10,667 bases of DNA from a virus, in the IMG/VR virus record IMGVR_UViG_3300045972_000602; one strand, given 5' to 3'. Below the pieces are notes generated by a model. The model was not told where the DNA came from. It did no database searches and saw nothing but the letters and a program-made list of their open reading frames with translations. The position numbers were made by a program, and so were the translations under genes. Below, in pieces: positions 9,156 to 9,626 of this stretch (position 1 is the first letter of the stretch; every line of letters starts with the position of its first letter).

Positions 9156-9626
9156 ATGGTCAAGATCATGCAAGCGGTGAGCGGCGGCGGCAAGGACACG
9201 TTCATCAAGAAGTTCCTGCAGGGCTACCGGATCTACTCGTCCGACAACTTCTTCACGGACGAGGATGGCGTCTACCACTTCGACATCAACAAGCTGGGGG
9301 AGGCTCACGCACAGTGCTTGCGGCAGTTCAGCGCGGCGGTGCAGGGCGGCAACGACATGAAGCTGGTGGTCAACAACACCAACACCACCGTCCTCGAGGT
9401 CGGGAAGTACGCCGAACTGGCCATCGCCTGGGGTCACGCGGTCGAGGTCATCACCCTCGACATCCCGTGGGAGATCGCGGCTGCTCGGAACGTCCACGGG
9501 ACGCCGCGCGAGATCGTGCAGGGCATGGCCGCGCGGATCAAGGACAGCCACAAGCAGTTCCCACGCTGGTGGCGTCACACCATCATCGACAACCGGCCCG
9601 TCGAGGCCGCCAAGGAGGTCGCATGA
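9156..9626 (+). CDS. Polynucleotide-kinase-like P-loop kinase (T4 Pnk 5'-kinase-domain-like), 156 aa, non-canonical Walker A SGGGKDT
   Basis: AGGGAG sits 4 nt upstream of ATG 9156. KLVVNNTNTTVLEVGKYAELAIAWGHAVEVITLDIPWEIAAARNVHGTPREIVQGMAARIKDS aligns with T4 Pnk [63 protein letters not shown]. The N-terminus IMQAVSGGGKDTF aligns with ILTIGCPGSGKSTW. The Walker lysine is kept, but Asp replaces Ser. Confidence 0.7.
   Translation: MVKIMQAVSGGGKDTFIKKFLQGYRIYSSDNFFTDEDGVYHFDINKLGEAHAQCLRQFSAAVQGGNDMKLVVNNTNTTVLEVGKYAELAIAWGHAVEVITLDIPWEIAAARNVHGTPREIVQGMAARIKDSHKQFPRWWRHTIIDNRPVEAAKEVA

Follow-up and report, generated by a model that had tools for sequence, protein, structure and literature searches.

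In P-loop NTPases, the Ser or Thr that follows the P-loop lysine (position K+1, the residue after that lysine) and the Asp of Walker B are treated as a strictly conserved catalytic pair, and a universal mechanism has been built on the hydrogen bond between them; the underlying survey, of more than 3,100 catalytic sites, describes the two residues as strictly conserved, hydrogen-bonded neighbors at the Mg2+ site (PMC9599734). Among polynucleotide kinases (PNKs), the Clostridium thermocellum Pnkp kinase (CthPnk) has Ser22 as the sole protein ligand of Mg2+, and both K21A and S22A are inactive (PMC3902929), while the essential kinase residues of T4 Pnk are K15, S16, D35, R38, D85, and R126 (PMC2831316). 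Here we describe a stand-alone PNK-like P-loop kinase gene (156 aa; positions 9156–9626, plus strand, as are all features below unless stated) from the IMG/VR virus record IMGVR_UViG_3300045972_000602, a contig of 10,667 bp and 62% GC from a JGI metagenome, the whole of which we refer to as the window. The PNK-like P-loop fold is already known, and what appears to be new is the exchange of the pair within a PNK-like family, i.e., Asp at K+1 and Asn at Walker B.

The closest described system is CthPnk (PDB 4gp6, 4jst, and 4mde), which is the best structural and profile match to the phage protein, has a similar size (about 170 aa), and aligns with it over the P-loop, the S-x-D general-base motif, the D/N-x-T-N strand, and the R-N lid. 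The two differ where CthPnk has GSGKS, the Asp of VVDATN, and Arg41 (PMC3902929), as the phage kinase has GGGKD, Asn73, and Phe33 instead. The first of these differences had been pointed out in the original prediction, and its reading of the P-loop stands: residues 7–14, A7-V-S-G-G-G-K13-D14 (9174–9197), have Ala for the first Gly and Asp (D14, GAC, 9195–9197) for the Ser/Thr, and the canonical GxxxxGK[ST] pattern is thus broken at both ends (A7...GKD). The same prediction called the downstream motifs well conserved, which is true of D30, T75, R111, and H114 but not of the Walker B Asp or of the Arg three residues after the general base. In the Walker B strand, V-V-N73-N-T75-N (9366–9383), N73 (AAC, 9372–9374) aligns with the Asp of CthPnk VVDATN and of the consensus VVDNTN, a change that had gone unnoticed and is key to interpreting the P-loop. 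We do not strictly equate N73 with D85 of T4 Pnk because, with the T-N motifs lined up, D85 and the CthPnk Asp fall one position apart. The general base sits in S28-S-D30-N-F-F33 (9237–9254), where D30 aligns with CthPnk Asp38 and F33 falls at CthPnk R41 and T4 R38; T75 aligns with CthPnk Thr80; the signature K46-L-G-E-A-H51-x-x-C54 (9291–9317) opens a helix spanning residues 44–63; and in the lid motif R111-N-V-H114-G (9486–9500) R111 falls at CthPnk lid Arg116 in the alignment.

The aberrant P-loop is part of a coordinated change in which two residues together invert the Mg2+-site dyad; about 2–3% of a large phage kinase family carries it. We aligned 261 relatives, drawn from 13 first homologs, the best 150 representatives, and 120 sequences obtained with a profile of five variant sequences. 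The K+1/Walker B pair is S/D in 191 of them and T/D in 33; D/N, the state of the phage kinase, occurs in 24, N/N in eight, and D/S in two, and there are single cases of S/S, T/H, and A/D. None of the 261 carries D/D, S/N, or T/N. The Walker B Asp is therefore lost (Asn or Ser instead) in 34/34 proteins with Asp or Asn at K+1, which we call the variants, and retained in 224/226 of those with Ser or Thr there, these 224 being the canonical members (Fisher exact p = 1e-40 for the association, shared ancestry ignored). Variants made up 5/155 of the sample without variant enrichment, and all five were paired; the variant-biased third search, whose word index could equally catch GKD with VDNTN or GKS with VNNTN, turned up neither combination.

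An error of sequencing or assembly, or recent decay of the gene to a pseudogene, would be one explanation for such a motif, and the kinase does come from a single metagenomic assembly with one supporting record. However, the K-D P-loop is present in 25 other metagenomic proteins, which answers the question of whether K-D occurs elsewhere and means that the deviation is not an assembly artifact. The paired change recurs in 33 other proteins from independent samples, and going from Ser to Asp requires two bases of the codon to change (GAC versus AGC or TCN), on top of the separate change in codon 73. The open reading frame (ORF) is intact and has the composition typical of the genuine genes of the contig, with GC of 0.91 at third codon positions (GC3, which was used to pick real genes in the contig) against 0.39 at second positions (GC2). 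We consider the probability of an error or a pseudogene to be negligible. An alternative start codon yielding a canonical P-loop, which had been foreseen as a possible refutation, is excluded as well: a strong Shine-Dalgarno sequence, AAGGGAG (9144–9150), lies 5 nt before ATG 9156 and overlaps an in-frame TAA (9144–9146, 9 nt before the ATG), so that no N-terminal extension can give another P-loop and the start is fixed.

The second foreseen refutation, that the region is not a P-loop kinase at all, fails on family, fold, and profile matches alike. Pfam AAA_33 (PF13671) matches the protein with 29.9 bits, above the cut-off of 27, and PHROG 2071 ("ATPase") matches at 5.5e-20, while PHROG 505 ("polynucleotide kinase") is weaker (2e-4). 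The AlphaFold2 (AF2) model, built on 14 sequences, has a pLDDT of 91.3, and its top Foldseek match in the PDB is the CthPnk kinase domain (TM 0.77–0.79), with further matches to mammalian PNKP, PSTK, a Mucorales kinase structure (9drz), and T4 Pnk (2e-6). Compared with known proteins, the family profile gives 1.6e-8 for CthPnk, ca. 4e-7 for PSTK and T4 Pnk, and 3.5e-6 for PNKP. Thus the label "T4-Pnk-like" is right in that this is a PNK-clade P-loop kinase, like T4 Pnkp in its fold and phage origin, but among solved structures the protein is closest to the bacterial Pnkp kinase, mammalian PNKP, and PSTK, and of the six essential T4 residues it has clearly kept just the Lys and the general-base Asp (PMC2831316). 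The protein ends at residue 156 and has no second domain, in particular no HAD DxDxT 3'-phosphatase domain, as had been noted; in this it differs from T4 Pnkp, and it also stands apart from CthPnk, which is fused to phosphatase and ligase modules. It belongs to a distinct PNK-like family and is neither an ortholog of T4 Pnkp nor a member of the T4 Pnkp family. There may also be a kinship with eukaryotic N4BP2/N4BP2L-type kinases.

This family is essentially phage-borne. A phmmer search with the kinase against 1.84 billion cluster representatives gave 6,219 hits (E <= 1e-3), the best homolog being only 46–48% identical; relatives are encoded on 52 IMG/VR viral contigs, and a scan of 185,579 species-representative genomes with a strict pattern found six loci, all on metagenome-assembled contigs. 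Residues invariant in the family are S28 and D30 (the S-x-D motif), F33, Y40, F42, K-L-G-E-A-H (46–51), C54, N74-T75, E81, Y85, R111, and H114. The general base D30 is kept in 34/34 variants and 223/224 canonical members, and the lid Arg and His are invariant in the variants and near-invariant in the canonical members.

From these sequence comparisons we would put at about even the chance that the phage gene encodes an active, stand-alone NTP-dependent phosphotransferase with a PNK (AAA_33) fold and a rewired Mg2+ site, from a large high-GC phage. The main competitor is a catalytically dead PNK-like domain retained as an NTP- or RNA-binding module or as a switch. Several observations weigh against an active kinase and speak for such a domain. 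Two positions that are essential in characterized PNKs are replaced, namely the K+1 Ser (S16 in T4 Pnk, Ser22 in CthPnk) and the motif Asp (D85 in T4 Pnk) (PMC2831316, PMC3902929), and Walker B D-to-N mutants of other P-loop NTPases usually lose catalysis while still binding NTP, according to the survey (PMC9599734). In the eight N/N variants neither site has a carboxylate, a state that would fit a switch-like binder as well as a kinase; torsinA and DnaC, AAA+ proteins with Asn at K+1 that the same text lists as exceptions, are very weak ATPases and comparable with these N/N variants (PMC9599734). CNPase, moreover, joins an inactive PNK-like domain to a 2H domain of the type encoded elsewhere in the window (PMC5434554).

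The variants, however, do not look like proteins that have merely lost function. All 34 keep G10, G12, K13, S28, D30, F33, Y40, F42, H51, N74, T75, E81, Y85, R111, and H114, among them the general base D30 together with K13, T75, R111, and H114. The only natural dead PNK to have been dissected, hnRNPUL1, is dead because it has an Asn in place of the general base, with intact Walker A and B, and a single N-to-D change at the general base reactivates it (PMC13066744). If function had simply been lost, there would be no need for two matched replacements or for D/D and S/N to be missing entirely. The original prediction had left the choice between a functional variant P-loop and a dead domain undecided. 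Since Asp at K+1 is always paired with the loss of the Walker B Asp and the other catalytic residues are invariant, we favor, on what the alignments suggest, an active kinase with a relocated metal-site carboxylate, and we regard the dead domain as unlikely, though it merits serious attention.

How the rewired site might work can be outlined as follows. Two touching metal-site residues have exchanged character, so the simplest reading is that the carboxylate moved from Walker B into the P-loop. Asp14 would supply an oxygen to the metal, directly or via water, and Asn73, at the former Walker B site, would hydrogen-bond to Asp14, donating the bond once given by the Ser/Thr hydroxyl. By homology, Lys13 would bind both the beta and the gamma phosphate, Asp30 would act as the general base that activates the acceptor hydroxyl, and Thr75 together with the R111/H114 lid would hold phosphates. 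In a bolder version, Asp14 might itself be transiently phosphorylated (an acyl-phosphate intermediate), or might alter the preference for metal or phosphate donor.

Partial precedents for such a site exist. The K+1 exceptions given in the survey are Gly in nucleoside monophosphate kinases and Asn in torsinA and DnaC (PMC9599734), the latter two resembling the phage kinase, and in particular its eight N/N relatives, in carrying at K+1 a residue other than Ser/Thr that has a side-chain oxygen; unlike it, they keep the Walker B Asp and are not kinases. On the Walker B side, the supplement of that survey describes metazoan Clp1, an RNA 5'-kinase whose Asn there is made good by Glu149 from an E-L-D triad, and MglA with Thr and a relocated Asp (PMC9599734 supplement). 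Both are natural shifts of the Mg2+-site carboxylate off Walker B, but there K+1 stays Thr/Ser and the carboxylate lies on a neighboring strand, whereas in the phage kinase it is on K+1 itself. The pair of Asp at K+1 and Asn at Walker B is absent from the exceptions catalogued in the part of the survey covered (PMC9599734), and a literature search for "GKD"-type Walker motifs returned only irrelevant matches. PPK2, considered as a precedent for Asp at K+1, does not qualify, as its Walker A is GXXXXGK with a conserved Asp at K-4 (D62 versus K66).

Closer to the family, a remote sister clade (IMG/VR loci L023–L052, with "ETDQFW" and "VVSNTF" motifs and a lid without the R-N motif) retains GK[ST], its Walker B column holding Ser, Ala, or His, and most cases with Ser there have a Glu at the S28 column (E-x-D, E-T-D), as in Clp1. 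The metal-site carboxylate is evidently mobile in this kinase superfamily, the Walker B Asp is thus not indispensable in it, and a relocation of the carboxylate becomes more plausible. With somewhat less than even confidence, we propose that Ser to Asp at K+1 combined with Asp to Asn at Walker B is a competent, recurrently evolved alternative Mg2+ wiring of the P-loop, and that it would be the first natural dyad to be inverted rather than lost.

Among three variant genes of the variant clade that are ca. 70% identical to each other, dN/dS is 0.23–0.37, and the variant kinase genes are under purifying selection with no decay. In neighbor-joining trees built with the K+1 and Walker B columns masked (ca. 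140 columns, hence noisy), the variants split into a clade of 16, groups of four, three, two, and two, and seven singletons including the phage kinase, and parsimony gives 8–13 state changes over 100 bootstrap replicates. Group-wise identities do not settle how often the swap arose. Like the D-type sequences within the large clade (LMA[VI]SGAGKDHF), the kinase of the window has the rare Ala7 and the lid end H-G-T, and it comes from the same kind of high-GC phage, for which reasons it may share that clade's origin; other variant groups come from different settings, e.g., a marine one for the Tara protein P0194. The pair has been kept together irrespective of whether the swap has one origin or more. 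In the large GKD clade, a conserved protein of ca. 150 aa (MLFTPEELGW...), to which no function is assigned, is encoded within about 400 nt 3' of the kinase (L053, 10885–11340; L056, 1993–2445; L057, 9407–9871; 63–71% mutual identity). It has no counterpart in the window, and the window and the variant clade have no conserved downstream partner in common.

The likeliest acceptor of an active enzyme would be a 5'-OH end of a nucleic acid or nucleotide. All nearest structural and sequence relatives are polynucleotide or tRNA kinases, and the invariant T75 corresponds to the Thr with which CthPnk (Thr80) and T4 Pnk bind the acceptor's first phosphodiester (PMC3902929). A polynucleotide acceptor is nevertheless uncertain because both enzymes bind the acceptor 3'-phosphate through an Arg that the family does not have (T4 R38, PMC2831316; CthPnk R41, which is essential, PMC3902929). 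The position, general base +3, is Phe33 in 34/34 variants and 206/224 canonical members. This, together with the family's own invariant K/H/C signature KLGEAHxxC, would also fit an active kinase with the same rewired Mg2+ site acting on a small molecule, a mononucleotide, or a modified base, with the 2H and cREC genes described below being unrelated passengers of a phage accessory region. Genes nearest to the homologs include MazG (5/150) and few repair genes, and 58/64 kinase loci have no 2H gene within 8 kb. A modified-base acceptor of the 5-hydroxymethyldeoxyuridine (5-hmdU) DNA kinase type was looked for and found no support, as PHROGs gave no such match and tblastn failed to extend to the ViI or M6 phages. 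Weighed together with the relatives, T75, and the gene linkage described below, a non-polynucleotide acceptor seems to us rather improbable.

Two of the neighboring genes encode predicted enzymes that may act on RNA ends, as the original prediction had suggested. The first (4291–4677) encodes a 2H phosphoesterase of 128 aa of the CNPase/Trl1-CPD type with the motifs H34-I-T and H87-V-T-I-S, which in the 2H family are invariant as H-x-T and H-I-T-I-S; its AF2 model (pLDDT 89) has the CNPase catalytic domain as best Foldseek match (TMq 0.76), and its Pfam tRNA_lig_CPD match is borderline. The second, the receiver-like protein, is a cyclic-phosphate-processing receiver (cREC; 10285–10665, truncated by the contig end) that matches PF20274 at 2.1e-12 (48 bits, cut-off 27). 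cREC has been predicted to be a cyclic-phosphate-processing enzyme tied to RNA ligases, 2H enzymes, and NAD-centered systems in jumbo phages (Iyer et al. 2021; PMC7824862). The Trl1 and lancelet healing modules are built from PNK plus a CNPase-type 2H (PMC5434554), and RNA-end healing is for this reason the best-supported guess at the function: the kinase, the 2H enzyme, which would open 2',3'-cyclic phosphates, and the cREC protein might together heal RNA cut by host nucleases.

This likeness to fungal and plant Trl1 KIN-CPD, to lancelet PNK/CPDase, and to vertebrate CNPase recurs in related phages. In at least four further contig lineages, targeted tblastn placed a 2H homolog on the strand of a kinase homolog and 0.5–6 kb from it; the kinases are canonical in L022 and L066 and variant in L053–55 and L057 (in L057 one small gene lies between the two), and all of these are high-GC phage contigs. 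The link emerged only by targeted tblastn because Pfam barely detects the 2H family of the window. Several points tell against the healing proposal. The linkage is seen in just 6/64 kinase loci and is therefore true of one phage group and not of the whole family, and among the 150 ORFs closest to the kinase homologs, surveyed with Pfam, there was no enrichment of RNA repair and no enriched partner (MazG 5, DUF4337 5). Neither an RNA ligase nor a 2'-phosphotransferase turned up on the 10.7-kb contig or in the regions flanking the related loci. Unlike in the eukaryotic proteins, the phage kinase and 2H are encoded by two genes lying 4.5 kb from each other, no ligase is seen, and the kinase comes from a different, phage-specific subfamily. 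The idea of a healing toolkit split across genes thus gains from the CNPase-like fold of the 2H protein, from the co-localization in other phages, and from cREC, but the set is incomplete.

The kinase and cREC genes share a strand and belong to one gene array. The kinase stop overlaps the start (ATGA) of a gene for an unrelated 103-aa protein with a hydrophobic N-terminal stretch (9623–9934), which suggests translational coupling, and a gene for a 110-aa protein with a hydrophobic N-terminal stretch and no assigned function (9950–10282) precedes cREC. A small membrane protein gene (60 aa, 8798–8980; ATG at 8798, Shine-Dalgarno AAGGAG) would be the first of the unit. The promoter-like motif GGTATAAGAAT (8751–8761) lies 47 nt upstream of that ATG; exact copies at 2843–2853, 3454–3464, and 8751–8761 each stand shortly before a plus-strand gene, the first two inside a longer 48-nt repeat at 2821 and 3432, and degenerate copies occur at 4954 and, on the minus strand, at 9118. 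These five matches at no more than two mismatches were reached in 0/200 shuffles. The motif is probably a phage promoter, and the copy at 8751 probably heads the unit formed by the genes at 8798, the kinase, 9623, 9950, and cREC. No terminator was predicted from 8800 to the contig end, the kinase–cREC interval included, and a terminator-like hairpin lies further upstream at 8467–8483, 3' of the vault gene described below; the kinase and cREC are thus probably co-transcribed.

The plus-strand gene series of the window follows a minus-strand RpoB-like ORF (1–2835, 945 translated codons) that is open at the left end of the contig. RpoB models cover residues ca. 230–630 of this frame (NCBIfam 4e-53, far under the family cut-off), no RpoB model matched the final ca. 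300 encoded residues, and the nearest relatives are in Salmonella phage Arash and Vibrio phage D69 (ca. 31–32% identity). A major vault protein (MVP) homolog of 869 aa is encoded at 5826–8435 (MVP_shoulder 2.7e-25, Vault_3 3e-11), with its nearest relatives in uncultured phages of 462 kb and 735 kb (39–45% identity). As both proteins are closest to those of large phages, the contig comes from a large phage. Megablast of the whole contig against 50,697 phage records gave zero matches, i.e., there is no close sequenced relative among them, and the huge phages that share the vault homolog show no synteny with it.

A 2H homolog is followed immediately by an MVP homolog (898–926 aa) in L067 (3404–6623) and in the P0273 contig, one of the two having bacterial-looking neighbors (HisKA, PEGA, FG-GAP, and Pkinase). 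The 2H–MVP arrangement looks like a conserved gene pair; the 462-kb and 735-kb phages have no 2H homolog within 12 kb of the MVP gene. On the low-GC contigs L068 (2588–6215) and L069 (2080–3070), the 2H family adjoins NADAR and nucleoside deoxyribosyltransferase-like genes, and in L068 a NUDIX gene and a weak Metallophos_2 match are also close by; these neighborhoods fit the NAD/ADP-ribose-centered systems described for jumbo phages.

The ca. 1.1 kb between the 2H and vault genes (4680–5825) is without a coding-type ORF and holds a 17-nt hairpin (4891–4926) and a degenerate copy of GGTATAAGAAT, with no Rfam match. After the vault gene, tRNA-like fragments lie at 8500–8600, a T-arm-like GCGGGTTCGAATCCTGC followed ca. 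50 nt downstream by an acceptor/D-arm-like GGGGCGGTAGTTCAGCGGTCAGAAC, for which neither ARAGORN nor Rfam (gathering and permissive thresholds) reports anything; they may represent a degenerate or split tRNA, or the remnant of an att site. The tRNA and Rfam searches of the contig, including permissive scans of both long intergenic regions, likewise found nothing.

There are, then, at least 34 proteins in which the polarity of the pair is reversed while the rest of the active site is kept. If they are active, a carboxylate can occupy either side of the K+1/Walker B dyad, and nature would have provided a double-mutant cycle for testing the proton-trap role proposed for it. With only some 150 residues and with canonical and inverted relatives at 40–50% identity, these kinases would offer a simple system for studying Mg2+ coordination and proton handling, and they caution that a Walker A motif alone is insufficient ground for calling such proteins "dead". 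For the phages themselves, the recurrent linkage of kinase and 2H genes, together with cREC, makes up a candidate split RNA-end-healing set in large high-GC phages.

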